From IMG/VR virus record IMGVR_UViG_3300029342_000002: a stretch of 64,000 nucleotides of DNA. One strand, given 5' to 3'. The number at the start of each line of letters is the position of its first letter. The first letter of the stretch is position 1. A program made the translations under genes and the position numbers. Of this stretch, positions 3,132-62,921 are shown piece by piece. The notes under the pieces are model-generated. The model had not been told where the DNA came from. It saw nothing but the letters and a program-made list of their open reading frames with translations, and searched no databases. Source of the stretch: a virus.

Positions 3132-3587
3132 ATGGAGAAGAGATATATAGGGATTGACCCTGGGAAGCATGGTGGCATTGCAGTGCTTTCGGCAGACGGG
3201 TCGGTTGTAGAGGTGGCGAAGATACCGGGGACGGCTCGTGACTTGCTGGACTTTCTTCGTCGTTATAAGGACGATAGTGTCTGCGTGTTAGAGAGGGTCG
3301 GCGGTGTGCCGGGTAACGGCGCTCATGCGATGTTTAACTTCGGCAAGGGTTTCGGTCATCTTCAGATGGCGCTTCTGGCGTTGGAGATTCCTACTGAGGA
3401 CGTTACCCCTAACAAGTGGGAGAAGACGTTCCAGATGGGCAGCTCGGGGAAGTTCACGAAGAGAGAATGGAAGAATCTGCTGAAGGCTAAGGCTCAGCAG
3501 CTGTTTCCGAAGCTCGGCAGAAAGGTGACGCTTGACACGTGCGATGCGCTGCTGATAGCGGAGTATGGCAGGAGGTTAGGGCTGTGA
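3132..3587 (+). CDS. RuvC-like Holliday junction resolvase
   Basis: N-terminal YIGIDPGKHGGIAVL and C-terminal DTCDALLIAEYG match the catalytic acidic motifs of phage RuvC-like resolvases. Confidence 0.8.
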   Translation: MEKRYIGIDPGKHGGIAVLSADGSVVEVAKIPGTARDLLDFLRRYKDDSVCVLERVGGVPGNGAHAMFNFGKGFGHLQMALLALEIPTEDVTPNKWEKTFQMGSSGKFTKREWKNLLKAKAQQLFPKLGRKVTLDTCDALLIAEYGRRLGL

Positions 3588-3640
3588 GGGCTGCTTGGTG
3601 ATGATTAATTATTGTTAAATGTTATAAAAGGATTATTGTT

Positions 3641-4138
3641 ATGATTGATTTTGGTAAGAAGGTTTATTCGGGTAATTTCCTGATTATGAAGAAGGTTAAG
3701 ACTTTGAGTAAGAAGGAGATGGCTCGGCTCCGTGAAATGAACGGGACGAATAAGGAGATGTGTAAGAAGTTGAGCCGTTCGGGGCTTCCCTATATCCGCG
3801 TGGAGACTATCGGCGGCGACTGGGCTGTGGAGTTTATGCTTGGCACTACTGCCTATGACGCCATCGAGGCGCTTGACGTGAAGAAGGACTGGCGTGGAGA
3901 CTGGAGAGTGACCGGCGTTGACGGCGAGAACTCGAAGTTAGTGTTTACGAGCATGTATATGGACACCTCTGTGGTGGGTGACGAGCAGTATCAGGCAGAC
4001 AAGTGCAAGGCTCTGACGGAGTATCTGAAGCGTGCCGGAGAGAAAGCCGTGGGCAAGATGGAGGAAACTTACGGGCCTTTGGACGTACTTGGCAACAATG
4101 ACGAGCCGGGAAAGGAGGTCAGCGATGGCAAAGAGTAG
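3641..4138 (+). CDS. hypothetical protein
   Basis: 165-aa ORF within the replication block. Confidence 0.6.
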   Translation: MIDFGKKVYSGNFLIMKKVKTLSKKEMARLREMNGTNKEMCKKLSRSGLPYIRVETIGGDWAVEFMLGTTAYDAIEALDVKKDWRGDWRVTGVDGENSKLVFTSMYMDTSVVGDEQYQADKCKALTEYLKRAGEKAVGKMEETYGPLDVLGNNDEPGKEVSDGKE

Positions 4139-23200: not shown

Positions 23201-24317
23201 CATAACTGGCCCGATAACCGCCTTCGCCAAGGCCCATGACGCTAAGAAGGAGCGTCAGATAAAGCTGGCAGAGCGCGAGCTGAAAGCCCTCGAAAACATG
23301 CAGACCACCATCAAGAACGCCATCGAGGACAGCTTGGGCGGCATCTACAACTACCGTATGGACGCGAAGACGACGGCGAAGATGAACAAGATAGTCAGCA
23401 GCTACGAGAATGGCGAGAAGAGCAACATCATGCGCATCGCCGGCATCAATCCGAGCGCCTACAGCAAGGAGACGTACGAGGCAGCACAGAAGAGCCTCGC
23501 TGACCCGACGGATGCCTATCAGGCAGAGCTGACGGGCCTGATGGCACAGCGAGACCAGCTACAGCGTCAGCGTGCCAACGAGGACGCCAAGAAGAAGACT
23601 GACAAGGACAAGCTGGCCGACTACGACCAACAGATAGAGGAGATGGAACGCTCTATAAAGAACGCCGCCAAGAACTTCCTCAAGGAGCTGTACGGCGTGG
23701 ACATGAAGAGCTGGGCAAGCCAACTGACAGACGCCGTGGTGAGCGCCTGGGAAAAGGGCGAGGACGCCATCGACGCCTACAAGAAAAAGGCGAAGGAAAT
23801 GGTGAAGGACCTCACGAAGAACATCATCTCGCAGAAGATAATGGAGCAAGCCCTTCAGAAGCCCCTCGACTTCCTGACACAGCAGATAGAGAAGAAGGGC
23901 AGACTGGACGAGTATGACGTGACACAGCTCGCCTCCGACCTCTACTCAGCCGGTGAGAACAGCGTGGCGAACATCACCGCTGTCCTTGAGGAGCTGAAGC
24001 GCAGAGGCTGGGATTTCTCCGAGAGCGGCAGTTCATCGACCACGAACACCATAAAGGGTGTGACGGAAGAGACCGCCGACCTCCTTGCCGCATATCTGAA
24101 CGCCATCCGCCTGGATGTGAGCGTGAACCGCGAGAATATCAAGGCAATAGCCACGAACGTGTCGCTCCTCCCTGCGATGAGCGAGATACAGAAGAGTCAG
24201 CTTGCAGCCATGAACCAACTCGTGACGCTCGCCCAGGTGCGTAACGACCGCATAGACGAGATAGTGACTTGGACCCGCAAGGTAAGCAACGGCTCATCAA
24301 AGATTTACGTGAAATAA
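17214..24317 (+). CDS. tape measure protein (2367 aa)
   Basis: Giant ORF after the major tail gene. Long coiled-coil regions, with a hydrophobic glycine-rich segment (about aa 1030-1090) typical of tape measure proteins. Confidence 0.9.
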   Translation: MADGNIGSLWLSLGIRDEMSKAIEKITKGMRGVDEATQKAKREGESLVKALEGINGNNFARVFREANAYIAKNSKEISGIAKILKNLGDSNAFTGTLLKAKGLEETAAALRKANAELAVLAKTEGKEADVSQWRTKISNALDYIKLLQDIIGQEKKLDNTKALNPNVDTKSLDNAKKSLEGFRAEMTRLLQSGGVDDSNVLGSFKKLLDVAKKDVQDIVATFKKDNPLSLFSGGAAKVETDLARVTEKLARLRDLMAEGTRKGFMTDMLGGSITELDKIMARLNAAKLNPTMLTDASQMRNLISDVLVEMTKATVAESAYRRERGKTVEVERAVNQEISNEHKAAQQERERDLQALSDYTKRYMELQEAKRKADDKAAKNAKDKARRRSEAEQRRIASDTAKMSRLYASMGLGIGKGERVGMRGLELGVNTAALDKALSEAAKFKKTIENTVVSMMGKGDRPAYEWYAAQVNRLKENLTNATAAQKELNAAQEKANRKAESDDAKRRADEKRKEAQAARELAQAEKQRQNQLEVTRSRIQSMERALHNLQEKRFTAKMLGIDTSEANAKIEHLKTQLIGLRNIQLGLSMGDTSFLGRVGNLGNGREVQAANQLAGTYSRLIGEVEKTNREKEKSIELERAHQQEVARTATKVRGDLAKAFEQAKNHSLGMNSTLQDLKSLFLQGGLVYGAQQFAMSIIQAGGEIEKQHIALQSIIGDVQNANVLFNQTKELALNSPFTFSELNKDVKQLAAYGVEYDELYDTTKRLADMASGLGVSFERIALAFGQVRSRGWLDGKELRQISYAGIPILQKLSEYYTKKEGQKVSTSEVKSRISNRGVDFEDVKNVFWEMTDAGGQFYNMQQVLSETLLGRYNKLKDAWEIMLSEFASGNNLVGSFFKTALDGATALVQALHTLALPVGAVVAGYAMRRALMGNTASSLLSTKGGLAKSAMEKQLRGENLTQIERNILSTKNKITGADLRSLMMSKQLNQSELARLRIAGKITQQQYLTYSALLKQQTGMNTFGMRTRRLLVQLRMMMAGMLANPMGAMRNMWGSFTTSALASFRVIGMGAKALGASLWSAIGGLPGLIISGVTFGISYLISKSQDLKQDMQQTMDEMKDRIKQIDDFMRDNNVGKIVRGDNEKEIDNAIESYKDKIREIAPESANAFEMKASEIESHKERLKYLEEQLDLLKEANKVAQEKSENTDLYEDLRDKTESAVKAAETLVKRSSIFGKGGVDEAEMGLYEDAEKEFDKFIGQLAARYKKEFPNIVNSTQEQQAMQTMLKNFLALKGASEEATMQIRSALNRALGLEDKDMEQAFASKLMNMVDSAFPEIADRIRGHKELDAESKRKVENLMRGAVSELSIAYPKWETELQRLLANSSFEAKILLVYDTGMIDNFDPFTGRIYNNVLGSNITQWKENAEKFQELKPLLKGVNDMYTARNNAKTELEKRYNIWKAEEDAKKKGKGDEATRLAVKKKYEDLRKAAYLGLGYEYVPEDKKSNRVPKGKGDKEDKVLKAWEERLNAFKSARQMYQKYKGLPNWGAKKADDMVRGLFPEVGDLSFDKYLESLEKLEKALKPTTTERKKAITALHRERSEWKYSEMLKPEADRLAADFAEILERGIRQADLHKALMEKTGDENFASLAFRDGMMWDDQTRGMAQMFEEMTGRKIDGLLDATDATAKKALEDNTDAYNLWKKITDLVRNNYTGYLEKAADAIKETATWEEKLIAVDAKWDERIKQADRRGDTSTAERFRQMRDKEKGQVMDAQFKQSQDYLNFFGAITEMGEVKAREVAAEIRQYLNTALRDGSIDAREYAKQIQQIDEQLRKLSERRKGFFNGGIVGIAERKTEEGNAKISMGATSVAAGEEKIREGRIKGDIALVAEGLKLKVTGEDLIRTGKKLVEEGMTLKKRFENIGSALGEIANIANGINDAFNQVKDMADALGIDTESDGWQDAQAAMSSLTSITGGISKTFKAVKSGDIGGAVSGVASIITGPITAFAKAHDAKKERQIKLAERELKALENMQTTIKNAIEDSLGGIYNYRMDAKTTAKMNKIVSSYENGEKSNIMRIAGINPSAYSKETYEAAQKSLADPTDAYQAELTGLMAQRDQLQRQRANEDAKKKTDKDKLADYDQQIEEMERSIKNAAKNFLKELYGVDMKSWASQLTDAVVSAWEKGEDAIDAYKKKAKEMVKDLTKNIISQKIMEQALQKPLDFLTQQIEKKGRLDEYDVTQLASDLYSAGENSVANITAVLEELKRRGWDFSESGSSSTTNTIKGVTEETADLLAAYLNAIRLDVSVNRENIKAIATNVSLLPAMSEIQKSQLAAMNQLVTLAQVRNDRIDEIVTWTRKVSNGSSKIYVK

Positions 24318-24921: not shown

Positions 24922-25377
24922 ATGCAATATTATAAAGTGTTGATGCAAAGAGAGACGGCAGGAGCTGCCGTAACGGACACCATTTCGGCGTTCGGCATGT
25001 ACTGCATGGACATTCCCTTCACGATGGCGGCCAAGGCAAAAGAGCCTTCGAAGCGCGAATGGAAGGACGAGGACGGCGACGACGAATACATACCCGCCGA
25101 AGGTCTGAAGATGAGCGCCTATGAGATGAGCGTGAAGTTCGGCATGAAGGGTGACAAGGACACGGCGAACAAGAACCTGAAAGCCTTCCTCGACTATCTG
25201 CGCGGCGGCACGATGAAGCTGTATTGCGACTACACAAAGATAGGCAGGCAGAACGTGCGCTTCGTGAGCATCGGCGAAGACGCTACGCTTGTAAGAGACG
25301 CCAACGGCGACTTGCTGATAATAAAGATAACATTCAAGGTGAACGATCCTGTCACCGACATAACCCTTACGATATGA
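24922..25377 (+). CDS. hypothetical distal tail protein
   Basis: 151-aa ORF with an ATGA overlap onto the next gene. Confidence 0.6.
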   Translation: MQYYKVLMQRETAGAAVTDTISAFGMYCMDIPFTMAAKAKEPSKREWKDEDGDDEYIPAEGLKMSAYEMSVKFGMKGDKDTANKNLKAFLDYLRGGTMKLYCDYTKIGRQNVRFVSIGEDATLVRDANGDLLIIKITFKVNDPVTDITLTI

Positions 25378-28300
25378 AAGAGCGTATACGAGTGTACCAT
25401 AAAGACGGAAGTCTTCTGAACGACATGGAAGGCAATGCCGTGGAGCTTAGCGCCGTGGAGATGACGGACGGCTGGATGGAGGACTGCTTCGTGCAGACCA
25501 CCATCGAAAGCGCGTACCCCATAAACTTCTCCATCGGCGACTACATTGTATACCGTGGCGAGCGCTATGAGCTGAACTACGACCCCGGCAAGGCGAAGAC
25601 AGCAAGAGCAGGCAGTGACAGAGGCGCTTTCAGATACGAGAACGTGAAGCTGAACGCCTTGCAGGACGAGCTTGTGAGAGCGCAGTTTCTGGACGTGGTA
25701 TTGGGAATGGAGAACACGGAAGAGCAGACGATACCCTACACAGCCCTTCCAAAATTCGGCTTCTACGTGCAGACCGTGGACGACCTCCTGGACCGCATAC
25801 AGGCGAACATGGACGAGCAGATGGGCGCAGGACTCTGGGCGCTGTACTCACGAAACAAGGAGCGCAGTCTGCAACGAGGCTGTGACGGAACCGTATGGGA
25901 GGAGATGTATGGCAAGGGCACTACTGAGACCATCATAGACTCCGCCGCTCTGACCATCGACAACCAGAACTGCTGGAACGCCCTCGCGTTAGTGAACTCG
26001 AAATGGGACATCAACTTCGTGGTGAGAGGACGCAACGTCTTCGTGGACACGACGGGGCTGGAGGTTCCGTACGAATTTGTCTACGGCAAGCGCAGGGGTC
26101 TGTACGAGATAACACAGACCGCTGATGACAGCCAAGCCGTGACCACCCGTCTGCGTGCCTACGGAAGTGAGAAGAACCTTCCGACACACTATTATGCCAA
26201 TCTGTGCGTGGACGTGTTCGGAGAAACATCGAAGATAAGTCATCTTGCCTCCTCGACGAACACCGTCCTGCATGTGACCATCCCGAGCCTTAGCTGGGCA
26301 GCAGCGGGCAGCTACTTCACGTCAGTGAGAGACGGATCGGCAGCGGAGAGCAGAGAATATAACGTGACGGTAAAGGCGGGCGACGTTGAAGGCAGAGGCT
26401 ATGCCGTGTCGTCAGCACGAAAGGAGGGTGAGGGGACAGTCACGATAATCCTGAACTCGTCAAACGACGAGTATGGAATGACGATGAATGACGTGGAGGA
26501 CTTCTACACCGCAGTGATGAAAGAAAGAAAGGTGTACTTCCTTCAAGGCGTGAACAAGCAGAGCTTCCCCTCGAAGAACATGATAGCCAATACGGACCAG
26601 ATGCCGTCCCACATGGCAGTGACAAGGCTGATGCTGCCGGGATTTCCAAAGATGTCCGTAAAGGAATGGTGGGACACGCAGGCTACCGAGGAAGAGAAGG
26701 CTTGGATAAACCCGAGCGGCAAGGAGCACCTTCTTTCAGAACTGAAGAACCGTCCCTACGTGGACTCGGTGAACATCAAGGAGCTTGGCGTGAGAAACGG
26801 CAGCGTGATGTTCGATACGGAGAACAAGAAGGAAGGCATCATCGAGATATATCCGACCATCGAAGAGATGACGGTGGACGGACAGCGCATAGACGAACTG
26901 AACAGCGGTTCTGCCATCAAAGACAACGGCATCTTCAAGGACGGACAGACCGTGCCTCCCTTCTCGGTGACGCTTTCCCCGAAGGTGAACTTCGACATAA
27001 ACATGCTGAAGAAGGAGGACTTCACAATCAGCATGAAGGACGGCAAGTGTGGCGGCAGAGAGTTTAAGGTGAACGGATCAGTGAAGGAGAACGGCGTGTG
27101 GAAGCTGACCCTTGACCGTGTGAAAGACGATGCCTTAGAGCTGTACTTCCCGAACAAGGACTTTCAGATGGAGAGCGGAGACCACTTCGTGCTGACCGGC
27201 ATAGAGATGCCCGACTCTTACGTGGAAGCTGCGTCGGCAAAACTTCTGAAATACGCCCTCGCATGGCTGGACAAGAACGACTATACGCGATACGTGTTCG
27301 AGCCGAAGGTGGACGAGATATTCATGGCGTATCAGCATGACAAGGCGAAGGCAGACACCACCGGCAAGACGGCGAGCCTTTACGAAACCCTCAAGGCAGG
27401 CAGTCTGCTGCACTTCAGCGACACAGACCTGAAGATAGACAAGAGCGGCGTCATAGAGAGACTCATCATCCGTGAGGAGCTTGGCAGCATCCCCACTTAC
27501 GATGTGACCATCAAGGAAGACAAGGACGTGGGAACGCTGCAAAAGATGCAGGACGCCATAGACACGGTCACGATGAGCGTGAAGTCGGGTCTCTCGTCGG
27601 CGCAGATAGAAGGTCTGATACGCAGCAGGGGAGCGAAATACTTCCTCTCAAAGACAGATCCCGACACAGCGCAGGACGTTATCCGCTTCCTTCGCGGTCT
27701 TACCGTTGGAAGGACTGGGGACGGATATGGCGTGACGGGCGAAGGGGCTGCTACGCTGAGCAGCTGTGTGGTGGAGAGCGTGCGCAACGCTGAGGCTACT
27801 GACGAGGACCGAACCATCGTGGGCGGCAAGGGCTTTGACCTCTATATGGGCAAGGACGGCAAGAGCCACCTCTACATTGACTACCTGACGACACGCACGA
27901 AGTTCTTCGCAGCAAGCGCTGAGGTAAGAAAGGTGAGCTATTCGGGCGGTACTACGCTCTTCTCAAACGCTGGCAGCACAATAATGAAGGTGGCTCACGT
28001 ACTGGATGATGCAGGAGTGACTGTCGGCTACAAATGCTATGCTGCTGCTGATGACGGCACAACACGGACGGCAAACTGGTGGCATGTGGGCATGATGGCG
28101 CTGTGCCAGACCTTTAATGTGAAGGCTGGTGAGACGGAGAACCTTCAGAACCGCTACTACTGGCGCCTTGTGGTGGGCACGGGACAGGAGACGTTAGAGG
28201 ACGGCAAGCTGTATGACTACGTGATACTGTCAAACAAGAGGGCGTTCATGGGCAGCGAGGCTTGCGTGCCGGTGACATCGCAAAGGGTGATAGGCGCTGA

Positions 28301-31223
28301 CGGCAAGGCGTTAGTGTTCGGCGACGTGATGATACAGGTGACCACAACGGGCGAGAAGCAGAGCTTGGCGGCGGTGTTCGAGGAGCAGGAGGGCAAGACT
28401 ACTGACGACGGCAACAACACCATAGCAAACCGCATGTTCTTCGGCTACGAGCCATCCGCGGACGGTGGGGAGCCTGACGTGCCACAGCCCTACGACGTGA
28501 TAGTACAGGCAGGAGACCAGATACAGTGGAACCGCTTCGGCAACCTCATCAAGCTAACGACATCTACGGAGGACGGAAGCGACAACGGAAACGCGCCCGC
28601 TATTGCGATGTATCATGCGATGGGTGCGCCTTACAAGGCGGGAGACACGGTGAATCCGTATCAGTGGAAGACGCTGACTTCCTTAGATTCCCCTCTCCTT
28701 GTGCTCAAGAATGCCAAGAACTTCAAGTTCTTCACCGATGACAACCCTGACAATATCATCGACCCTGTGACGGTGACTTACGACCTTGTACCATCCTCGG
28801 AATATATCATCCGCAAGCCGAACTCGCAGACGGCGACACCGAACGACGTGACCTTCACGCTGACAAAGCGCACGGGCAACGTGTCGGAAACGATGAAGGA
28901 CGGATATTTGCTGACGGCAGACTACACTACCACGGACGGCGAAAGCAAGAGCGGCGTGGCGATAAACCGCCTGTCTGACATCGGCGTGAGCTTCTACCTC
29001 CTCGCTTCGGTGACGGTACGGGCAACTGTCAAGGCGGACCACACCACCGTGGCTCTGACACTTCCGATCCTCTCTGACGGCGCGAAGGGCGACACGGGCA
29101 CAAGCTTCAAGGTGCTCGGCTACGCTCTTGCCCATGCCAAGACATACGCGGAGCTACAGCAGATAACGCCCACCGAGAACGGCCTTTATCTCGTTGACGA
29201 TACTACGGGCATGGAAGGTGGCAGCAAGCGTCCCTGTGTGGTGCAGTGGAAGAACGGAAAATATATCGTGTGTGACTCAAACGACGGCGACTCATACAAG
29301 ATAGGCGAAATACTCTGGACGAATACGGGCACGTACTGGCTGGACATAGGCAGCGTGAAGGGCGAGGGTGTGGTGATATCGGACATGAGCGTGACGTACG
29401 CCATATCTGACAGCGCTACGGTGACACCTACGGAATGGCAGTCGGCCATCATCGCCGCCACCGACGCGAAGCCCTATCTCTGGACGAGGACAACGGTGAC
29501 CTACAAGGATTCGGAGGGAGAGCATACGACGGTGTCATACGCCATAGCCTACAAGGGCAAGGACGGCGACAAGGGAGACCCCGGAGCAAACGGCAAGGAC
29601 GCGGTGGAGTTTATTCTAAAGAATGCGCCTCTTGTGTTTGACACAGACGAGAACGGCGTGGTATCGGCAAGTGTAAGCAAGACCGCCACCATACAAGTGA
29701 TGCGTTCCGGTAAGAACATCACATCGGAGGTGAGCAATCTCTTCCCGAGCAACAGCAACATGGGCTGCGGAAAACCGACGCTGACAAAGCGGACTGACGG
29801 CATAGACGTGACGATATCGGGAGCTTCGATAAACAAAGACAGCAAGCTCGGTGTGAGTGTGACGAGCGGATACGTAATCGTGTATATGGCAATCGGAAGT
29901 ACGCTATACTCTCAGCAGATACCCTTTTTGGTGAACTTGGCAAAGTTTACGGGGACGATATCGGCTGACAACAAGAAGCTGCGGACGGATTATACGGAGC
30001 TGACGAACCGTGTAGGAGCAGTGGAGACGGACGTAAACGGAATCCCTATCAAGACGCAGGAAAAGCTGACGAAATACACCTCGACCATTGAGCAGACGGC
30101 CCGTGAAATATCGCTGAAGGTGACGGAGGAGACCGTGAACATGGCACGTAACTGCATCGTCGGCTCGGCGCTGAGGGAATATGACGAAATAACGCCAATC
30201 AACGGTACGAAGAACGTGACGATAATGACGCAGGGCGTGGGTGGCACTAACTATGCCCAATGCTACTGTATCGGAGCCACTGCAAACTCTTGGACGGGCC
30301 TGTACTTCAAGGACGTGCGCGTGAAGCCGCAGACAAAATACATATTCAGCGTATGGATGAGAATGACGGCAAAGCCCGACAATGGCAGCTACGTGGCTAT
30401 AAAGACATACAACACCTCCGTGACTGGCACGGAGGTGGCACGCATCCCGTTCCCTGACAGTCAGACACTGAACGTTTGGGCATTGTACAAGGTGGCGGTG
30501 AGCGTTCCGGCAGCATGTAACCGCCTTCTGATAGAGACAGGCGTGAGAAAGAACGGAGCGATAGACCTGTGTCGTCCGATGCTGGAAGAAGGCGATACGT
30601 ACCAAGGCTGGAGCCTCTCGCCTTACGACGTAACCATAGACGATGCAGTGGTGGCGACAGGCTTAGACATCAAGAACGGCATCATCAAGGCAACGGCTGA
30701 TAAATTCGAGATAAGAAACAACAACGGCGAACAGACGGCTACCGTGAACGAGAAGGGACGCTTGGAGGTAAAGAGCGGTTTGTTTTCGGGTTTTATAGTG
30801 AAGAAGATGACGACACTCACTCCTGATAACATTTCCGAATATCTTAAAAGCTCACAGAGCAATGGCTATTTAGACATAGACTTTTCGACGGCTGGCTCAT
30901 ACGTGTGCTTTACGGGCGCGATGAAGGCGAAATTTGGAGACAATTATCCTTCACCTGTACTTCCTTACTACAATATAGGCAGTATAAGTGCATCACTCGG
31001 CGTAACGGCGGAAGAAGCAATATCCTACATAGGACAAATCGTGATAATAGCGAACAAGAGCGATACGACGGTAAACGTTGTTTGCGGAGGAACTATCAAG
31101 GGTGGCGGCACACAGTCGCAGTGGATAGAAACGGGCTACATGGCTGTGTTGACTTGCGAGTTCGAGTACACATCGGTAAAGAACTATAAAATAGTATGGA
31201 ATGGATATTGTGTGAAAATATAA
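25374..31223 (+). CDS. giant distal tail / host-specificity protein (1949 aa)
   Basis: Start taken at M51 of ORF 25224 (ATGA coupling). Position follows the tape measure and distal tail genes. Contains a short collagen-like stretch GKDGDKGDPGANGKD near 29555-29602. Confidence 0.8.
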   Translation: MKERIRVYHKDGSLLNDMEGNAVELSAVEMTDGWMEDCFVQTTIESAYPINFSIGDYIVYRGERYELNYDPGKAKTARAGSDRGAFRYENVKLNALQDELVRAQFLDVVLGMENTEEQTIPYTALPKFGFYVQTVDDLLDRIQANMDEQMGAGLWALYSRNKERSLQRGCDGTVWEEMYGKGTTETIIDSAALTIDNQNCWNALALVNSKWDINFVVRGRNVFVDTTGLEVPYEFVYGKRRGLYEITQTADDSQAVTTRLRAYGSEKNLPTHYYANLCVDVFGETSKISHLASSTNTVLHVTIPSLSWAAAGSYFTSVRDGSAAESREYNVTVKAGDVEGRGYAVSSARKEGEGTVTIILNSSNDEYGMTMNDVEDFYTAVMKERKVYFLQGVNKQSFPSKNMIANTDQMPSHMAVTRLMLPGFPKMSVKEWWDTQATEEEKAWINPSGKEHLLSELKNRPYVDSVNIKELGVRNGSVMFDTENKKEGIIEIYPTIEEMTVDGQRIDELNSGSAIKDNGIFKDGQTVPPFSVTLSPKVNFDINMLKKEDFTISMKDGKCGGREFKVNGSVKENGVWKLTLDRVKDDALELYFPNKDFQMESGDHFVLTGIEMPDSYVEAASAKLLKYALAWLDKNDYTRYVFEPKVDEIFMAYQHDKAKADTTGKTASLYETLKAGSLLHFSDTDLKIDKSGVIERLIIREELGSIPTYDVTIKEDKDVGTLQKMQDAIDTVTMSVKSGLSSAQIEGLIRSRGAKYFLSKTDPDTAQDVIRFLRGLTVGRTGDGYGVTGEGAATLSSCVVESVRNAEATDEDRTIVGGKGFDLYMGKDGKSHLYIDYLTTRTKFFAASAEVRKVSYSGGTTLFSNAGSTIMKVAHVLDDAGVTVGYKCYAAADDGTTRTANWWHVGMMALCQTFNVKAGETENLQNRYYWRLVVGTGQETLEDGKLYDYVILSNKRAFMGSEACVPVTSQRVIGADGKALVFGDVMIQVTTTGEKQSLAAVFEEQEGKTTDDGNNTIANRMFFGYEPSADGGEPDVPQPYDVIVQAGDQIQWNRFGNLIKLTTSTEDGSDNGNAPAIAMYHAMGAPYKAGDTVNPYQWKTLTSLDSPLLVLKNAKNFKFFTDDNPDNIIDPVTVTYDLVPSSEYIIRKPNSQTATPNDVTFTLTKRTGNVSETMKDGYLLTADYTTTDGESKSGVAINRLSDIGVSFYLLASVTVRATVKADHTTVALTLPILSDGAKGDTGTSFKVLGYALAHAKTYAELQQITPTENGLYLVDDTTGMEGGSKRPCVVQWKNGKYIVCDSNDGDSYKIGEILWTNTGTYWLDIGSVKGEGVVISDMSVTYAISDSATVTPTEWQSAIIAATDAKPYLWTRTTVTYKDSEGEHTTVSYAIAYKGKDGDKGDPGANGKDAVEFILKNAPLVFDTDENGVVSASVSKTATIQVMRSGKNITSEVSNLFPSNSNMGCGKPTLTKRTDGIDVTISGASINKDSKLGVSVTSGYVIVYMAIGSTLYSQQIPFLVNLAKFTGTISADNKKLRTDYTELTNRVGAVETDVNGIPIKTQEKLTKYTSTIEQTAREISLKVTEETVNMARNCIVGSALREYDEITPINGTKNVTIMTQGVGGTNYAQCYCIGATANSWTGLYFKDVRVKPQTKYIFSVWMRMTAKPDNGSYVAIKTYNTSVTGTEVARIPFPDSQTLNVWALYKVAVSVPAACNRLLIETGVRKNGAIDLCRPMLEEGDTYQGWSLSPYDVTIDDAVVATGLDIKNGIIKATADKFEIRNNNGEQTATVNEKGRLEVKSGLFSGFIVKKMTTLTPDNISEYLKSSQSNGYLDIDFSTAGSYVCFTGAMKAKFGDNYPSPVLPYYNIGSISASLGVTAEEAISYIGQIVIIANKSDTTVNVVCGGTIKGGGTQSQWIETGYMAVLTCEFEYTSVKNYKIVWNGYCVKI

Positions 31224-55334: not shown

Positions 55335-56015
55335 TTAGACATTGAAAGTTTTGGCTATGTAATCGTTGGCGAGACGGACGCGCTCTTCGAGGAGGCGGAT
55401 GTCGTCGTCGTTACGTTCTATATGGACGATATGGATGGGGGAGGAGAGCCATGCGCAGTAAGATACGAAATCGGCTGACGTGCAGCCTGTGCAGGACATC
55501 TCTGCCATCACTTGCCAGTAATACTCGGGCTTGACAGCCTTCAACGAGGCTGCATCGTGTATCTCTGCGACATATCGTGTATGGACGGCGAGAGAGGGGC
55601 ACTTGATTTCGAGGCACTTCTGCTCCTCTCCGCGGACTATTCCGTCGGGAGAGGCAGCAAAGTGCGGGATGATATCGTGTGCGCATGAGGAGACCTCGAA
55701 GACCTCCACATCGTCGTTAAGAGAGGAGTAGAGCTGGCGGGCGGACTCCTCTTGCTGGACGCCCCATTCCATAGCCCGCGTGGAGACGGCGACCTGGTCA
55801 AGATAAGACTGGAAAATGTCGTCGTCAGAAAGGAACTGGGGATTGAACAGCCTTTCGGCAGCTATCTGATAGATGTACGTCTTGGCTGTTTCGGACCAAG
55901 GCTCGTCTTTCTTGCGAGGATTGGTCATAAGCTTGTGGACCTCGGAACCTGTAACAGAACCGAAGCGTGCGCGGAACCATGAGATTTCGCGCTGATTGGA
56001 CTCGGTGTTAATCAT
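55335..56015 (-). CDS. YqaJ-like (lambda Exo-type) recombination exonuclease
   Basis: WFRARFGSVTGSEVHKL plus PD-(D/E)xK-like ASPDGIV....LEIKCP. Confidence 0.8.
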   Translation of the reverse strand: MINTESNQREISWFRARFGSVTGSEVHKLMTNPRKKDEPWSETAKTYIYQIAAERLFNPQFLSDDDIFQSYLDQVAVSTRAMEWGVQQEESARQLYSSLNDDVEVFEVSSCAHDIIPHFAASPDGIVRGEEQKCLEIKCPSLAVHTRYVAEIHDAASLKAVKPEYYWQVMAEMSCTGCTSADFVSYCAWLSSPIHIVHIERNDDDIRLLEERVRLANDYIAKTFNV

Positions 56016-56878
56016 TTCTTGTCCTCCTTCTTGTCCTCCTTCTTGGCGGCGGCATTCTTGGCTGCTTCAGCTGCTGCGGCAGCGATGGTGTTCTTGGTTT
56101 CCTCTTTGCGGTAAGGTTTCATAAGCTCATCGACGGTTGTGTCGCCGTCGGTGAGTGACTGCGTGATGCCGAGGAGGAGGGCTATTTCGTTGGCCTTGAT
56201 CTGATTGACGGTCTTCTTTCCGCAGAGCATTACCACCTCCTGCTCTGTGATGCCGAACTCGTCCTTGAAGTAATCAATGCACTTCTTTCTGCGGGCGATA
56301 ATCTTATCCTCGTCAGAGAGGTCGCCGGTGATGCAGCGCTGCGCCGCCTGATAGACCTTGTCGGTTATGGCTCGTGGGATGACTGAGAAAACGGCGTTGC
56401 GGTAGGCTATGGAGTTGGCAGCATTGCCTGTAACAGTAATCATGTCGTCAGAGAAGCGCTGTCCTGTACGTCCGACGATAGAGCGGCGTACTTCGAATGC
56501 CGTAGCGACGTTGTTTTCGAGGTCCCAACATGTGCCACGCGAGATGACCTGCTTGTCGGTAATCTGAACGACCTTGGCTTCGGCTCGAATGTTTCCATAA
56601 TTGGAAACTATGAGTTTGGCGAGGTGAACGGACGGTCCGGTGATGGGTTTGCCGCCACGAGGAAGGGCGTAACCGCAAGACTGAGCTGTAGGAATGTCCA
56701 TTGTGGCCATTGCTACGGAATTGTTGATGGCTCGGCGAAGGTCGCGCGGGTATTGCTTGGCTGTGGCAATCTGGGAATCTACGTTTGCGCGTTCGATGGT
56801 GTCGAGCTGAATGATGTTCTGGTCATGCTGGACCTGTGTCACTTCGTAAGCGTCAAGTGACTGTAAGCTGTTTTCCAT
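56012..56878 (-). CDS. single-strand annealing recombinase (RecT/Redbeta or Rad52-like; family unresolved)
   Basis: 288-aa ORF translationally coupled upstream of the YqaJ exonuclease. Assigned by synteny. Confidence 0.55.
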   Translation of the reverse strand: MENSLQSLDAYEVTQVQHDQNIIQLDTIERANVDSQIATAKQYPRDLRRAINNSVAMATMDIPTAQSCGYALPRGGKPITGPSVHLAKLIVSNYGNIRAEAKVVQITDKQVISRGTCWDLENNVATAFEVRRSIVGRTGQRFSDDMITVTGNAANSIAYRNAVFSVIPRAITDKVYQAAQRCITGDLSDEDKIIARRKKCIDYFKDEFGITEQEVVMLCGKKTVNQIKANEIALLLGITQSLTDGDTTVDELMKPYRKEETKNTIAAAAAEAAKNAAAKKEDKKEDKK

Positions 56879-56881
56879 ATA

Positions 56882-57061
56882 TTAAAGTGTTTTGTATTTA
56901 CAGAATTTGAAGCCGTTGGCGTTTTCGTGCCTTTCGCAGAAACCTTCCGCGTAGTCGGCTGCTACGGCTCGACGCTGCTTTTCTCTTGCCACTTCGTACG
57001 GCAAGTCCATGATGTCATGGAATCTGATTTGCAGCATTTCGACTGATATCTTCTTTCTCAT
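56882..57061 (-). CDS. small hypothetical protein (59 aa)
   Basis: Hand-translated as MRKKISVEMLQIRFHDIMDLPYEVAREKQRRAVAADYAEGFCERHENANGFKFCKYKTL. Confidence 0.35.
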   Translation of the reverse strand: MRKKISVEMLQIRFHDIMDLPYEVAREKQRRAVAADYAEGFCERHENANGFKFCKYKTL

Positions 57062-57739: not shown

Positions 57740-57809
57740 GCGGAACGGGAAGGAATCGAACCTTCGCTAAAACGGCATCCACGCCGTCGTCCCTCCAGGA
57801 ATCACTTCC
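57740..57809 (-). pseudogene. degenerate tRNA-like element 1
   Basis: On the - strand there is a canonical T arm GAAGG-TTCGATT-CCTTC and a stem ACGGC/GCCGT with a 6-nt loop. The acceptor pairing is only 4-5 bp (GGAAGTG versus CCGTTCC). Coordinates +-2. Confidence 0.4.
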
Positions 57810-57919: not shown

Positions 57920-58546
57920 TTAAATAGCCGAGATAAACTTGATGCCGTACCGCCTGGAGAAATACTCTTCGTTGGGTGTGCGGCGTGTCTGTTCGTCGTA
58001 ATGGAGTGTAAGACGGTCGGTTTCGCTTCGGAAATAGTTGTGTAGAGTGACGAGGCGCCGTATGCTGTTGCTTGTCTTTTTCGGCAATATTGATATCCGG
58101 AGCTTGGTCTGCTGACGCATGCCTGACATTATGCGGAACCTCTCCATGCGCATTGTCTTTCTGCGCTTGGCGGAGCGCTTGCTGATGATTTCGGGTGTAT
58201 TGAGGTGTTCCGTCTTAATATTCTTGTATCTCTCCTTTCTCCTTTCTATTGTCTCGGGGGTGTGCTTGAGTTTCAGTTGTCTGGCCCATTGCCGTATGGT
58301 GGACTGTGGAACGCCGAACTTCTCCTCGAGTTCACGCGGGAGCATGTCGGGATAGTTCTGGATGATGACAGGCTTCAGACGGCTGCTTCGGCACAGAGGC
58401 GCTTCCGCCGTGACTATCCCGCTGAGAATGCGCGATACCGAACCCGACGAGATGTGGACTTTTTCGGCGATTTGCCGGTGTAAGAGTGTCCCTCTCAGAC
58501 TGAGCACTTCGTCAATCTGCTGTTGCGTGATACGATGTCTTGTCAT
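57920..58546 (-). CDS. double-HTH DNA-binding regulator
   Basis: Start taken at M23 (ATGA coupling). Two HTH-like segments: HRQIAEKVHISSGSVSRIL and LEEKFGVPQSTIRQWARQL. Confidence 0.6.
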   Translation of the reverse strand: MTRHRITQQQIDEVLSLRGTLLHRQIAEKVHISSGSVSRILSGIVTAEAPLCRSSRLKPVIIQNYPDMLPRELEEKFGVPQSTIRQWARQLKLKHTPETIERRKERYKNIKTEHLNTPEIISKRSAKRRKTMRMERFRIMSGMRQQTKLRISILPKKTSNSIRRLVTLHNYFRSETDRLTLHYDEQTRRTPNEEYFSRRYGIKFISAI

Positions 58547-58797
58547 AAAGCACGTATGTAGTTGGGGTTCTTGACGAGTCGGGCGTAAGCTTCGATTCCG
58601 AAGCGCTGCCACATTCCGTTGGAGAACTGTACGATGTAATCGCCTGCATTGGCCCGAAGGGAGCCGTTGGTGAGGTCCTTGGAGAGGACCACGACGAGTC
58701 CGTCGCCGTGGTCAGCCACAGCTACGACACAGGGCAGGGCGAGAAGCCTGTCCGTGTTGGCTTTGGTGACGTGTATGGAATCAATGACTTTTACCAT
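58543..58797 (-). CDS. hypothetical protein (84 aa)
   Basis: Start taken at M42 (MVKVIDSIH) of ORF 58543..58920. Confidence 0.5.
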   Translation of the reverse strand: MVKVIDSIHVTKANTDRLLALPCVVAVADHGDGLVVVLSKDLTNGSLRANAGDYIVQFSNGMWQRFGIEAYARLVKNPNYIRAL

Positions 58798-58995
58798 TGT
58801 GTATATCGTTTTAGTGGGTTCGTAAATAAAAATCGGGTGCGACTCGCGCCGGACCCGACTAAGAAAGCTCTTTTGAATGAAAACAAAAATGCGTGTGGTG
58901 CGCCCTCGCTTGGGCAGCAAGTTGAATTAAAAATTTTTATGGAAAAAATCTTCTAACAATTAATATCAATTTTATATTTATAACATTATGACGAG

Positions 58996-59059
58996 AAGGA
59001 GAGGCGGGACTCAAACCCGCATTCTTTGGTTATTGTACTGTCAGTTGTACGACTCTCCC
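58996..59059 (-). ncRNA. tRNA-like element 2 (acceptor stem + T arm + one 4-bp hairpin; no anticodon arm)
   Basis: On the - strand: GGGAGAG-TC-GTAC-AACTGACA-GTAC-AATAACCAAAGAAT-GCGGG-TTTGAGT-CCCGC-CTCTCCT. About 63 nt, with a 7-bp acceptor stem (one G:U pair). Confidence 0.45.
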
Positions 59060-59379
59060 TATCCAACATATTATTTAAAAAAACGACAAAGAATTGCTGT
59101 TTTATACCGATTATGTATGGATTTGTGTGTGTGTGCTGTTTTATAGATCTCAGCAATCTTGCCAGTGTCACGGGACGTCTGGCAGCCCGCTGCATTTCGT
59201 TTCTCTCCGCCTGCGCCAACATGGAGTGTGGCGTGGTTCGTTTGACGGTACTCGGAAGATGCGTTAGTGGGTCTTTCGTGGCGTGCGTTCCTTCATGGGT
59301 CGCGGCGTCCAAAACGCTGCCATTACTACTTTTACACGCTCACTGTATGTAACCAATAAGTCAAAGAACAACAAGAAAA

Positions 59380-59476
59380 TGGTCGGCAGACGAGGAATCG
59401 AACCTCGCGGACTGGCTGTCAAGGGAATGAGATGGAAAGTGAATGTATTCAGCCTAATCCGCCGCCTGCTCTGCCG
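59380..59476 (-). ncRNA. tRNA-like element 3 (perfect acceptor stem, canonical T arm, encoded CCA; 31-nt loop replaces the anticodon arm)
   Basis: On the - strand: CGGCAGA...GGCTG-[AATACATTCACTTTCCATCTCATTCCCTTGA]-CAGCC-AGTCCG-CGAGG-TTCGATT-CCTCG-TCTGCCG-A-CCA. 97 nt. Confidence 0.5.
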
Positions 59477-59650
59477 TAAACTGGCGATTCTCACGAAGGG
59501 CCAGATCAATTCATGTCTTAAAATTTTTCACCTTGTTTCGCTAAACAAAGATTTGAAGAACGATAAATATCAACTTCTCAATTTTCAAAAAACTACTACC
59601 TAACCTAACAATCTCAAAATGAGAAAAATATATGAGTATGATCTGTGTTT

Positions 59651-60177: not shown

Positions 60178-60265
60178 AGTCAATAAAATATCAATACTAA
60201 ATCAAGTTTAAAGTTGATTTATTTACATTTTTTGCATTTATAGTTGACTTAATATTGATTTATAA
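60178..60265. promoter_or_regulatory. switch region with phased TCAA/TTGA half-sites (candidate operators)
   Basis: TCAATAAAATATCAATA, AAATCAA-N8-TTGATTT (60199-60220) and TTGACTTAATATTGATTT lie between the divergent Cro-like and CI-like genes. Confidence 0.45.
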
Positions 60266-60287
60266 ACACTCGTTAACATATACAACT

Positions 60288-60806
60288 ATGGATGGAAAGA
60301 TTACTTCAGTTGACTACGCTGTATCGGAAAGAATGAGGCTATTTATGTCGCACTCTGGTTACACCCAAGCTGCTATTGCCGAAGCGTGCAATGTTGACGT
60401 ATCAACATTGAGCCGATGTATGAACAACAAAAAGCCGTGGTCAAGCAAAATGCTACAAAAGATTGGTTCGGCTTTCAATGTTGCCTTCCTTTGGCTGCGT
60501 GATGGTGTAGGCAAAATGATAGCCGAGGAGAAAGCCATCGGCAAGGCGCAGTTTGCTGCCTTCAGCCAGATGCTCGACGCGAATACAAGCCCTGTGTCGC
60601 AGAATATCATCAGCGGCGATAACTATCAAGGCACGCAGACGATAAACGACACAGAGGGCGAAATAGTGGCATTGAGGCAGAAAGTGGAACTGTTGAAGCG
60701 TCTGCTTGACGAGAAGGACAAATTGCTTGAGGAGAAAGACAAGCTGATAAAAGAAAAAGACAAGCAGATAGACCTTATGTATATTCTTATCAACGACAAG
60801 AAGTAA
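60288..60806 (+). CDS. CI-like repressor (XRE-type HTH plus C-terminal coiled coil)
   Basis: Start taken at MDGKITS. HTH segment GYTQAAIAEACNVDVSTLSRCMN. C-terminal heptad-rich LLDEKDKLLEEKDKLIKEKDKQI. Confidence 0.7.
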   Translation: MDGKITSVDYAVSERMRLFMSHSGYTQAAIAEACNVDVSTLSRCMNNKKPWSSKMLQKIGSAFNVAFLWLRDGVGKMIAEEKAIGKAQFAAFSQMLDANTSPVSQNIISGDNYQGTQTINDTEGEIVALRQKVELLKRLLDEKDKLLEEKDKLIKEKDKQIDLMYILINDKK

Positions 60807-60886
60807 AATAGTGGTAAAGGTAGTGGACTTTGTAAAATAAAGAACCGCAAACAAATAGTAATCAAGAAGTTACAGAAATAACAAAT

Positions 60887-60947
60887 CGCCTGGAAAGCGT
60901 GTAGGCGTCAAAAGCGTCTCGCAGGTTCGAATCCTGTTCTCTCCGCC
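60887..60947 (+). other. 5'-truncated tRNA-Ser(GGA)-like fragment (anticodon loop to 3' end): candidate att core
   Basis: CGC-CTGGAAA-GCGTG, a long variable arm, T arm GCAGG-TTCGAAT-CCTGT, then TCTCTCC-G-CC. No matching 5' acceptor or D arm lies upstream. Confidence 0.7.
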
Positions 60948-60971
60948 TGATAATCAGTGAGTTACGCAATT

Positions 60972-61007
60972 AAGACGATTCCTGTGGGATCGTCTTATTT
61001 TCGTTTT
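60972..61007 (+). terminator. rho-independent terminator after the tRNA fragment
   Basis: Stem AAGACGAT...ATCGTCTT followed by ATTTTCGTTTT. Confidence 0.65.
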
Positions 61008-61085
61008 AGGCGGTTTGAAATGGTGTTTTTAGGCGGTTTTGAGGGGTTTTGGTGGACTTATTGGTGGACTTTTTTAGTGGACTTT
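61004..61085 (+). repeat. direct repeats upstream of int (candidate arm-type sites)
   Basis: TTTTAGGCGGTTT occurs twice (61004 and 61026). T(T/A)GTGGACTT occurs three times (61049, 61061, 61075). Confidence 0.7.
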
Positions 61086-61104
61086 TAATCAAAAACCGAT
61101 TGTT

Positions 61105-62289
61105 ATGAGGTATTTTATCAGTACTAAGGAGAGTAAAAGGAACGAGAGCGGGATGATTCCCGTATCGGTGGTGTTCCGTCACGAGGGTAGGGAGTTTGCT
61201 GCTTCAACTGGCATAGCGGTGAAGTACGCAATGAACGGCATGGTGTTCTCGGCAGAGGAGCCTAATCTGAAAGCCAAGACAAGGAGGCTTATGTGTATCA
61301 TGGACGAGGTGGATAGGTATGTCCTTGAGCACGTGGATTCGGATTATGAGCGGATGAAGGAGGATTTGCGCTGCATCGTTACGGGCAAGGACCCGAGGGA
61401 AAAGAGGTCGCTTGCAAGTTTTGTGCGTGAGTTTGCCGAACTGAAGAGTGGGAGTACAAGGAAAATATATCTCAGGACGGCGGCGTTGATTGAAGGCTAT
61501 GCGCCTGAGGCGACGTTCGGTTCTGTGAACGGCTCGTGGCTTGACGGCTTCGTGCGGTCTATTGGCGAGAATGCAAGCGTGAACTATGCTGCCATCAACC
61601 TGAGGAATATACGTGCGGTGTTTAACTGGGCGATAGACAACGAATGGACATCGTGCTATCCGTTCAGACGCTACAAGATAAAGTCGGAGAAGGTGGCAAT
61701 CAACAATATCTCGCTGGAGCAGCTGAGGGCGGTGCGTGACTTTCCTCTTGATGACTGGCGTCGGATTTACCGGGACTTATTCATGTTGTCGTTCTATCTG
61801 TGCGGCATCAATCCTGCGGACTTGCTGCGATTGAAGGCGTCGGATATGAAAAACGGGCGTATTCGCTACAAACGGGCGAAGACAGGGCATTTGTTTGACA
61901 TTCCAGTACCGAAGCCCGCTGAGGATATTATAAGCCGCTGGAGGGGCAGGAAATGGCTTCTATGCCCTCTTGACAACTATTCCGACTACAGGGGCTTTTA
62001 TTGTCACTGGAATGCTGCTCTGAAGAAAATCGGCAGTCTAGAGCTTGCCCCGGACAAGTCGGGTGGGTTGCGCAAGAAGGTCTGGCGTCCGATTGTGGAG
62101 GGTCTGACGACGTACACGGCTCGTTATACGTTTGCGAGCATCGCCGCGGAACTTGAGATTCCGCGTGAGACTATAGCTCTTTGTCTCGGTCATTCGTGGG
62201 CTGATGTGACGAGCCACTACATCGCCTATGACACTAAGCGCATAGATGATGCGGTGGCTCGGATTGTGGCTTACGTGGAGGGGAGCTGA
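61105..62289 (+). CDS. int: tyrosine integrase
   Basis: 394 aa. C-terminal catalytic region ...TTYTARYTFASIAA...LCLGHSWADVTSHYI has a Bacteroidetes-type R..(H/Y)xxR..H..Y arrangement. Lies adjacent to the tRNA fragment. Confidence 0.85.
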   Translation: MRYFISTKESKRNESGMIPVSVVFRHEGREFAASTGIAVKYAMNGMVFSAEEPNLKAKTRRLMCIMDEVDRYVLEHVDSDYERMKEDLRCIVTGKDPREKRSLASFVREFAELKSGSTRKIYLRTAALIEGYAPEATFGSVNGSWLDGFVRSIGENASVNYAAINLRNIRAVFNWAIDNEWTSCYPFRRYKIKSEKVAINNISLEQLRAVRDFPLDDWRRIYRDLFMLSFYLCGINPADLLRLKASDMKNGRIRYKRAKTGHLFDIPVPKPAEDIISRWRGRKWLLCPLDNYSDYRGFYCHWNAALKKIGSLELAPDKSGGLRKKVWRPIVEGLTTYTARYTFASIAAELEIPRETIALCLGHSWADVTSHYIAYDTKRIDDAVARIVAYVEGS

Positions 62290-62654: not shown

Positions 62655-62742
62655 ATCTGTTTTGCTGTTTAAAAAAAATAAAAAATTGACACACACGCTT
62701 CACAGCTCTCGCGTGCGAGAGTGTGAGTATATAGATGTTATG

Positions 62743-62921
62743 TATAGCTATTAGGATATATGAATGTATATGAATATATACTAATAGCTATATATAATAT
62801 CTATATATATATAGTGCAATCGCATGCAATCGCATAGGCATAATCGGACGTACTGATAATCAATGAGTTACGACGATGGAAATACGTCGGGAAATACGTC
62901 GGATTATGCGATTTATGCGAT
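62743..62921. repeat. cluster of short repeats next to the second recombinase (candidate att/arm sites)
   Basis: 12-bp inverted repeat TATAGCTATTAG/CTAATAGCTATA (62743 and 62781). Tandem GCAATCGCAT x2 (62816), GGAAATACGTCG x2 (62878) and TTATGCGAT x2 (62904). The last is inverted relative to ATCGCAT. Confidence 0.8.

Follow-up and report, generated by a model that had tools for sequence, protein, structure and literature searches.

What kind of RNA has the two ends of a transfer RNA (tRNA) without an anticodon arm, and what would a phage use it for? This question was raised by a 64,000-nucleotide (nt) stretch of viral DNA from IMG/VR (record IMGVR_UViG_3300029342_000002), here called the window, in which an original prediction, made from the letters alone, had noted a tRNA-like element. 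We refer to it as element C, and to related contigs and loci by L numbers. We conclude that element C is a real, conserved tRNA-shaped RNA that has kept its acceptor stem and T arm and has lost a working anticodon arm, and that it is one member of a widespread, unannotated class carried by temperate gut phages of the Bacteroides type in their early operons.

Architecture and conservation of element C

Direct reading of the sequence bore out the predicted layout, with an acceptor stem of 7/7 pairs, a T arm, an encoded ACCA and a 31-nt segment containing one G. From 5' to 3' element C runs CGGCAGA-GCAGGCGGCGGAUUA-GGCUG-AAUACAUUCACUUUCCAUCUCAUUCCCUUGA-CAGCC-AGUCCG-CGAGG-UUCGAUU-CCUCG-UCUGCCG-ACCA, where AAUACAUUCACUUUCCAUCUCAUUCCCUUGA is the 31-nt segment with its single G. 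Its parts and the hairpin that precedes it are the following.

59380..59476, minus strand: element C, a 97-nt tRNA-like RNA, from direct sequence reading
59470..59476, minus strand: 5' strand of the acceptor stem, CGGCAGA (positions 1-7), with 7/7 pairs to 59384-59390
59455..59469, minus strand: D-loop-like region GCAGGCGGCGGAUUA (positions 8-22), unchanged throughout type 1 (see below)
59408..59454, minus strand: variable interior (positions 23-69), consisting of GGCUG, the 31-nt G-poor segment, CAGCC and AGUCCG
59391..59407, minus strand: T arm CGAGG-UUCGAUU-CCUCG (positions 70-86), with 5 base pairs (bp) and a 7-nt loop
59380..59390, minus strand: 3' strand of the acceptor stem, UCUGCCG, followed by the discriminator A and CCA
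59481..59504, minus strand: leader hairpin CUGGC-CC-UUC-GUGA-GAA-UC-GCCAG, with a GNRA tetraloop and an internal loop, ending 4 nt upstream of element C

The variable interior occupies the place of the anticodon arm and the variable arm. Canonical tRNA features were found in the 7-bp acceptor stem with its discriminator and in the 5-bp T stem with its 7-nt T loop (UUCRANY), and a canonical anticodon arm (5-bp stem, 7-nt loop, U33) was missing. ARAGORN at default settings reported no tRNA and no transfer-messenger RNA (tmRNA) genes over the 64-kb window. Rfam left element C unmatched at gathering thresholds, and also when E values up to 10 were allowed in a search of 881 nt. With the ARAGORN threshold lowered to 80%, element C was forced into a 'tRNA-Val(cac)' with a D stem of 2-3 pairs and an anticodon stem of 3/5 pairs. 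The U41 to C change of the majority variant would cost this forced stem one further pair. The second interior type of the element (type 2, see below) was never called by ARAGORN, even at a threshold of 70%, and has no anticodon arm. ARAGORN, Rfam and the forced folds therefore agree with the core of the original prediction, in which the acceptor/T-arm half of a tRNA-like RNA is intact and a functional anticodon arm is absent. The standard tools did not fold element C as an ordinary type II tRNA.

These results, together with a search in intron mode, led us to set aside three related identities. An ordinary or type II tRNA was rejected because default ARAGORN and Rfam were negative, the forced fold was poor, and the D and anticodon stems were missing. 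For an intron-containing tRNA, ARAGORN with introns allowed (-i) was negative at default stringency, and no sign of a spliceable intron was seen. The predicted option of an interrupted tRNA holds in an evolutionary sense, in that the D loop and a remnant of the variable arm align with tRNA-Leu, and fails in the sense of a gene with an intron. A tmRNA or mini-tmRNA was rejected on the third acceptor pair (G3-C70, no G3-U70), the lack of pseudoknots, the 0 genes returned by ARAGORN -m and the negative Rfam result. Element C does resemble the tRNA-like domain of tmRNA in its acceptor stem, T arm, stemless D loop, replaced anticodon arm and 3' ACCA. However, tmRNA is about 350 nt long with pseudoknots and G3-U70, whereas element C has 97 nt, neither of these features, and no conserved stop-terminated frame. 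The type-1 loop can be read as AUA CAU UCA CUU UCC AUC UCA UUC CCU UGA, and type 2 has no in-frame stop. A protein-coding function was also rejected: open reading frames (ORFs) of 81 and 106 amino acids run over element C, but the 4 additional nt of type 2 shift the frame of both, and we therefore regard the element as non-coding.

In all, 14 distinct variants of element C were collected from pattern scans and from contigs anchored on neighbouring proteins; IMG/VR pattern scans for more divergent copies returned the same phage group only. The acceptor 5' strand was invariant and the acceptor stem fully paired in 14/14 variants, the lone change being a 3'-side C to U that keeps a G-U pair. Positions 1-28 did not vary, and four pairs of the T stem were constant. 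The T-stem closing pair 70:86 was C-G in four variants, U-A in four, U-G in four and mismatched in two; mismatches at 65, 69 and 70:86 occurred in some variants, and in L110 the T loop was UCCGAUU (U55 to C). The encoded CCA was not conserved, with ACAA in L056, L091 and L110. Since the two host tRNA genes that adjoin related prophages likewise lack an encoded CCA, we do not regard CCA as a defining feature.

The interior was found as two unrelated cassettes, type 1 with the 31-nt loop and type 2 (AACUAUAUUUCCAAAUCGCUUCCCUCCCUUUCGUCCGAAAG), and L090 carries a hybrid of the two. A remnant variable hairpin reads GAC-AGCCA-GUC in type 1 and CUUUC-GUCC-GAAAG in type 2. When conservation in relatives was checked, the stems were thus kept and the loop varied, so the encoded CCA and the loop, which the original prediction had put among the defining features, both differ among relatives. 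In an identity profile of 17 genomes (the window and 16 relatives) the outer parts of element C reached 0.97-0.99, the interior 0.88-0.91 and the flanking coding genes 0.84-0.94. The whole stretch 59500-59000 was as conserved as the outer parts, and the interior of element C was the least conserved part of this otherwise highly conserved 500-nt stretch.

Three interior pairings were compared. The predicted helix GGCUG/CAGCC (5 bp) is lost in type 2, where 3/5 of its pairs fail. Helix 15-21/64-70 (7-8 bp) showed one clean A-U to G-C switch, equalled in 1/500 shuffles, and was broken in two type-1 variants. A degenerate D arm, 9-13/23-27, had 4/5 pairs with a G-G mismatch in every variant. The folds 15-21/64-70 and 9-13/23-27 were about equally compatible with the data. 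Taken together, the data show that the acceptor/T-arm half is under constraint and that the anticodon arm is dispensable.

Related elements in the early operons of gut phages

The original prediction had held that a 7/7 acceptor match with CCA was very unlikely to be fortuitous. We wrote a detector that requires a T arm followed directly by a 7-bp acceptor 3' strand, with the complement of that strand 18-114 nt upstream of the T stem; a match that ARAGORN does not call as a tRNA is termed uncalled. In 553 kb of unrelated contigs 31 matches were detected, of which 30 were called by ARAGORN, so the background is 1 uncalled match per 553 kb. Under the same strict rule the 64-kb window contained 2, elements B and C, in addition to a further tRNA-like element, A, and the claim was thereby upheld.

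58996..59059, minus strand: element B, a 64-nt tRNA-like element with acceptor stem, D arm, T arm and a 14-nt linker in place of the anticodon arm
57741..57793, minus strand: element A, a 52-nt tRNA-like element with a 6-bp acceptor stem, one D-like hairpin, T arm and discriminator

Element B was essentially invariant among relatives and scored 34.5 bits with the Rfam tRNA model, its anticodon arm being cut to 6 nt. This exceeds the gathering score of 29; that the default gathering run passed over element B is presumably due to speed filters. Element A showed covariation in its third acceptor pair (G-U / G-C / A-U) and in the closing pair of its hairpin (A-U / G-C / G-U).

The class extends beyond the window. 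In 80 viral loci (605 kb) anchored on RecT proteins 48-76% identical to that of the distant relative L107, 47 uncalled matches were detected, and 45 of them lay on the RecT strand (45:2). An uncalled element was present within 1.5 kb upstream of RecT in 36/76 loci, and genuine tRNAs occurred there in 8. A second set of 75 loci (724 kb), anchored on the recombinase type of the window itself, gave 63 uncalled matches with 62 on the operon strand (62:1), along with many genuine tRNAs, every one on the operon strand. Together, about 1.3 Mb of early regions contained more than 100 elements with an operon-strand bias of 107:3. The class comprised 67 distinct sense-strand sequences of 52-142 nt. Overlap with a same-strand ORF was found for 33% of the elements as against 77% of random placements.

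Several members illustrate how the anticodon arm has been lost. A 61-nt type aligned to the Rfam tRNA model with the anticodon stem-loop deleted (47.7 bits), and the AGGAG(A/G)G lineage occurs in two forms, one of 87 nt whose middle arm is long and irregular and one of 57 nt from which that arm has been deleted. A compensatory change, U3-A70 to C3-G70, separates the L147 and L154 types. In L211, L231 and L266 a 5-bp stem closes a 23-24-nt loop, a design as in element C, and L129b has a long G-poor, C/U-rich insert. The cultured Bacteroides phage BKO1-TP3, the closest cultured relative of the RecT lineage, carries a 59-nt type at PQ571269.1:1137-1195, 42 nt upstream of RecT. It is unannotated there, and the paper describing this phage never mentions tRNA.

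Most of the phage elements end in A-CAA. In the host genes for tRNA-Thr (L058 3313-3479) and tRNA-Gly (L090 7642-7818) the discriminator is followed by CA(A/C) and not by CCA. This 3' context, common to phage elements and host tRNA genes, may be a processing signal.

In L107 (DUF4494 38% identical) the place of element C, after an HTH_17 gene and directly upstream of RecT, is taken by a different element of 89 nt, likewise uncalled. It has an acceptor stem and a D arm, then 33 nt without structure and a T arm, and the motif CGGAU(U/A)AG..GAAUA is common to both elements. GUGA- or GCGA-capped equivalents of the leader hairpin precede the elements of L107, L112b, L113, L176b, L144c, L115 and L144b, i.e. 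7 besides the two C types; other class members have an A/U-rich hairpin in place of the GNRA-capped one. Elements of the class usually follow a hairpin. Element C itself combines the 12-bp acceptor/T-stem stack of the class with its other features, being uncalled, sense, intergenic, aberrant in its anticodon arm and preceded by a hairpin. Neither membership in a class nor the conserved upstream hairpin had been part of the original prediction.

Rfam contained no family for these elements beyond partial tRNA matches, and the literature covered by full-text searches nowhere describes tRNA-like elements of the anticodon-less kind in phage operons. To our knowledge, tRNA genes of phages are usually discussed only as codon supply or as an escape from tRNA-cleaving defence. 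Here, a large group of common temperate phages of the gut Bacteroides type carries many non-decoding tRNA-shaped elements that are conserved, covarying, intergenic and on the operon strand, and that standard annotation overlooks, even in cultured BKO1-TP3. The class is relevant to tRNA annotation in viromes and can be tested in a cultured system.

As to the origin of element C, a covariance model built from it alone gave a self score of 123.8 bits and weak non-self matches (20.8 bits or less). The best of these were phage tRNA-Leu genes, with 20.8 and 18.9 bits (E about 0.04-0.13), and the alignment spans the D loop (GGCGGAAUUGGCAGA in tRNA-Leu) and the type II variable arm. In this register the 3' strand of the D stem is lost from element C. 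The ARAGORN-called type II tRNA-Leu genes of phages L180 and L181 lie in the same setting, on the sense strand and upstream of the recombinase. Their D-loop region, variable arm, T arm and A-CAA tail can be aligned with element C, where the variable arm is a remnant; element C differs from them in that it lacks the anticodon stem-loop, has an eroded D stem and carries about 5 additional nt following the acceptor stem. For the AAUCGGAUA subfamily MAFFT mis-registered the acceptor strands, and no reliable covariance model was obtained. The alignments weakly suggest that element C descended from a type II tRNA with erosion of the D and anticodon stems.

The same homology, and the erosion of these stems, would be expected if element C were a decaying pseudogene of a phage type II tRNA-Leu-like gene, now devoid of any function of its own and conserved through recent ancestry or through constraint on its neighbours. 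The U55 to C change in L110, the mismatches in the T stem and interior of some variants, the closeness of all direct relatives and the preference of the detector for intact-stem copies also fit decay. We nevertheless consider this quite improbable. The 5' and 3' parts of element C are more conserved than the adjacent coding genes and the interior is not; many independent lineages show the same architecture again, with compensatory changes and with the arm cleanly deleted; the bias to one strand is extreme (107:3); and in L107 the same leader hairpin and position go with a different anticodon-less element.

Possible roles of the elements

We lean, tentatively, towards the elements being tRNA-derived modules for processing and stability, or 'punctuation', in early polycistronic messenger RNA (mRNA), which we regard as a serious possibility. 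Element C would probably be transcribed within the early leftward operon as a non-decoding module from a type II, Leu-like tRNA. The retained half would provide a 12-bp coaxial acceptor/T-stem stack, the T loop and a GG-containing D-loop region, and the anticodon arm would have been swapped for an unstructured, fast-evolving segment. Host ribonuclease (RNase) P would cut the 5' end, and the 3' end would be made by RNase Z or by exonucleases with the CCA-adding enzyme. After cleavage, the message upstream would end in the GNRA-capped leader hairpin, which would shield its new 3' end, and a small, stable RNA of tRNA-like shape would come free as a by-product. The same may apply to elements A and B and to the more than 100 similar elements of related phages.

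The acceptor/T-arm minihelix is what bacterial RNase P, RNase Z and the CCA-adding enzyme recognise, and all three can do without the anticodon arm. As this minihelix is exactly the half that has been retained, punctuation is the most economical model, and it would explain why the anticodon arm is dispensable and has been repeatedly deleted or replaced. Comparable systems are the mitochondrial tRNAs, the t-elements of plant mitochondria and the mascRNA of MALAT1. These too are acceptor/T-arm mimics within longer transcripts, with a dispensable or aberrant anticodon arm, and cuts by RNase P and RNase Z define the mRNA ends. They are organellar or eukaryotic, whereas element C lies in a phage operon and its processing is one that we infer; the Rfam mascRNA model gave a chance-level match of 13.8 bits in L107. 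We know of no comparable punctuation class in phage operons. If the elements are processing signals, the phages would use the tRNA-maturation enzymes of the host to cut and stabilise their early mRNAs. The hosts in question largely lack translation initiation driven by Shine-Dalgarno sequences, and how mRNA ends are defined may for this reason be of greater weight than usual. A phage precedent is the C4 RNA of P1/P7, a structured RNA excised from an operon transcript by RNase P (PMC5320573).

Several points weigh against punctuation. The relatives of element C are close, the first six contigs compared being 92-97% identical to the window over the region, so that covariation within element C rests on very few events. 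Because the detector needs intact acceptor and T stems, and decayed copies are invisible to it, the impression that only the anticodon arm is lost is inflated. A position within 60 nt upstream of a start codon was found for 21% of the elements and 15% of random placements, which is a weak excess. Cleavage by RNase P and RNase Z is inferred throughout. Punctuation leaves unexplained the invariance of the 5' D-loop-like region of element C, the GUGA-specific tetraloop of the leader hairpin, and the co-segregation of the loop with the recombinase of the phage, a single-strand annealing protein.

56012..56878, minus strand: recombinase (single-strand annealing protein), phrog_3657

In a 5.6-kb alignment of 16 genomes, perfect segregation with the loop type was seen only for the loop, two nucleotides and the whole recombinase gene. 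The type 1 loop goes with the phrog_3657 recombinase (288 amino acids) and the type 2 loop with Pfam RecT; the segregating blocks are 56092-56885 and 59411-59449, and the DNA between them is a mosaic. This joint switching may reflect only one, two or a few recombination events.

Together with the precise swapping of cassettes on a constant scaffold (type 1, type 2 and the hybrid of L090), it is in line with a riboregulator, in which the tRNA-like scaffold would serve RNase P processing and stability and the variable, single-stranded C/U-rich cassette would determine specificity by binding an RNA or a protein. The partner could provide a link to the recombinase module or to phage immunity. The site of element C is in the early/immunity region, two genes downstream of the promoter area near the repressor, and the G-poor, C/U-rich insert of L129b recalls the cassette. 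C4 RNA again offers a precedent, as it is likewise a small structured RNA of the early/immunity region of temperate phages, with a conserved scaffold and variable specificity loops (PMC5320573). RNase P processing is known for C4 (PMC5320573) and would have to be assumed for element C. C4 differs in its three stem-loops, in having no canonical T arm, in loops that pair with targets on the same transcript, and in hosts that are Proteobacteria, whereas those of element C are Bacteroidota.

Complementarity searches with the loop found nothing above shuffled-loop controls in the whole window, in cis from -1.3 to +2.2 kb in four genomes, or between cognate and non-cognate recombinase genes. The original prediction had offered the loop as a guide or sponge, and this option gained no support: no site in the window, in about 2 kb in cis or in the recombinase gene beat the shuffled loops. 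An antisense RNA of the C4 family itself did not fit, as no Rfam family matched at E values up to 10 and the loops had no same-transcript complementarity above shuffles. The CI RNA of satellite phage P4 is related to this C4-type comparison. No Rfam match was obtained to C4 or any other family, the equivalent segment of L107 is not G-poor, most class members have no such loop at all, and the co-segregation may stem from one or two recombination events. A riboregulator is therefore, in our view, an unlikely explanation, though one to be taken seriously.

A bolder version of the same idea treats the elements as a half-tRNA family whose variable cassette is a specificity module, functionally coupled to the single-strand annealing recombinase of the RecT or phrog_3657 type. 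The RNA could then be a recombinase-matched cofactor, a regulator or an immunity determinant. Such coupling would explain both the joint switching of loop and recombinase and the frequent position of the elements just upstream of the recombinase gene; we hold it to be decidedly improbable.

The retention of the acceptor/T-arm/elbow half alone can also be read as a decoy or sponge for a host factor that reads the upper half of tRNA. This factor could be a defence toxin directed at the acceptor end or the elbow of tRNA, or else an enzyme of tRNA modification or processing. Early in infection, the element would shield host or phage tRNAs or titrate the factor. A location that suggests early expression, the presence of several elements per genome (A, B and C here, three in L144) and the genuine tRNAs at the same positions in relatives agree with this, and phage tRNAs are known to counter tRNA-cleaving defence systems. 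However, the best-known tRNA-targeting defence consists of anticodon nucleases, for which elements without anticodon loops cannot be decoys. This analysis identified no tRNA-targeting system or cognate gene, the literature search gave no precedent for tRNA-like decoys of phages, and the conserved leader hairpin would be left unexplained. We judge a decoy, which the original prediction had listed among its options, rather unlikely. If the cassette is a specificity module, or the RNAs are decoys, the elements would represent a new type of phage regulatory or counter-defence RNA.

Among the known tRNA mimics, bacterial Y RNAs of the YrlA type end in a Ro-binding stem and not in an acceptor stem. 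The tRNA-like module of YrlA (PMC4201824) belongs to a non-coding RNA that mimics T arm, D arm and acceptor stem, with some examples encoded by phages. Element C had no Rfam match to the YrlA family.

Genomic setting, probable attachment site and further observations

The window is a temperate phage. Apart from the genes given below, and the recombinase, it encodes a YqaJ exonuclease, replication proteins, a primase and a major head protein.

61105-62289: integrase
60255-60806: CI-like repressor
about 60921-60948, plus strand: element D, a tRNA 3' fragment with T arm and 3' acceptor strand and no 5' partner

Element C is on the minus strand, which it shares with the early leftward operon, between a 65-amino-acid HTH_17 gene and an 84-amino-acid gene. 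The 850-nt gap that holds it is gene-free by gene calling in relatives. The Pfam domains DUF4494, DUF3127 and DUF6291 and the closest cultured relative of the RecT lineage, BKO1-TP3, point to a host in the Bacteroidota. A scan of genome collections for the host gave only chance matches (Alphaproteobacteria and Adiutrix), and no direct DNA similarity of the window to GenBank phages was found.

Element D, located between the genes for repressor and integrase, probably represents the core of the phage attachment site (attP). The fact that tRNA 3' fragments serve as cores of attachment (att) sites, the position of element D next to the integrase, the tRNA-Gly gene that adjoins related prophages and the location of the cassette boundaries exactly inside element C raise the question of whether element C acts as DNA, either as a recombination linker between phage modules or as a tRNA-derived secondary attachment-type site. 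We consider this highly improbable: both acceptor strands are present and covary, which matters for an RNA and not for an att core, and the strong bias to the transcribed strand and the conserved upstream RNA hairpin indicate RNA.

L023, L034 and L041 have a different sequence across 60768-61535, and the prophages L058 and L090 adjoin host tRNA-Thr(CGT) and tRNA-Gly(CCC) genes, respectively. From these two observations the att/integrase modules appear to be exchangeable. Downstream of the integrase gene, at 62729-62806, there is a near-perfect palindrome of about 78 nt, AT-rich (18% GC), whose Rfam matches to microRNA precursors were at chance level.

The 320 nt between elements C and B (59060-59379, minus strand) were 97-100% identical in the 17 genomes. 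Their conservation exceeds that of the adjacent protein genes. In relatives this stretch has no called gene, and in some of the genomes indels interrupt its small candidate ORFs. A scan for sigma-70-type promoters and terminators gave results at chance level. At about 58824-58858 (minus strand), between element B and the 84-amino-acid gene, a terminator-like hairpin, UCGGGU..ACCCGA, is followed by UUUUUAUUU; it escaped the consensus scan because its loop is long. This hairpin could be the end of an immediate-early transcript containing elements C and B.

In L054 (IMGVR_UViG_3300014750_000023) two 32-nt repeats GTCGCACCCTACGTGGGTGCGTGGATTGAAAC of the clustered regularly interspaced short palindromic repeats (CRISPR) type with a 32-nt spacer, at about 3545-3650, run straight into phage sequence that starts just 3' of element B. 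L054 is a chimeric assembly through a CRISPR array, which implies that a host with the repeat GTCGCACCCTACGTGGGTGCGTGGATTGAAAC carries a spacer against this phage.

Two further observations concern other genes of the window. A helix-turn-helix (HTH) protein of 208/230 amino acids (57920-58612) has a 35%-identical homologue in L059 (GCA_963648135.1, 479-3125) directly upstream of the large terminase, which suggests that it is akin to small terminase subunits. Finally, the structural/late region contains two very large ORFs on the plus strand, 17214-24317 (2367 amino acids) and 25224-31223 (1999 amino acids).

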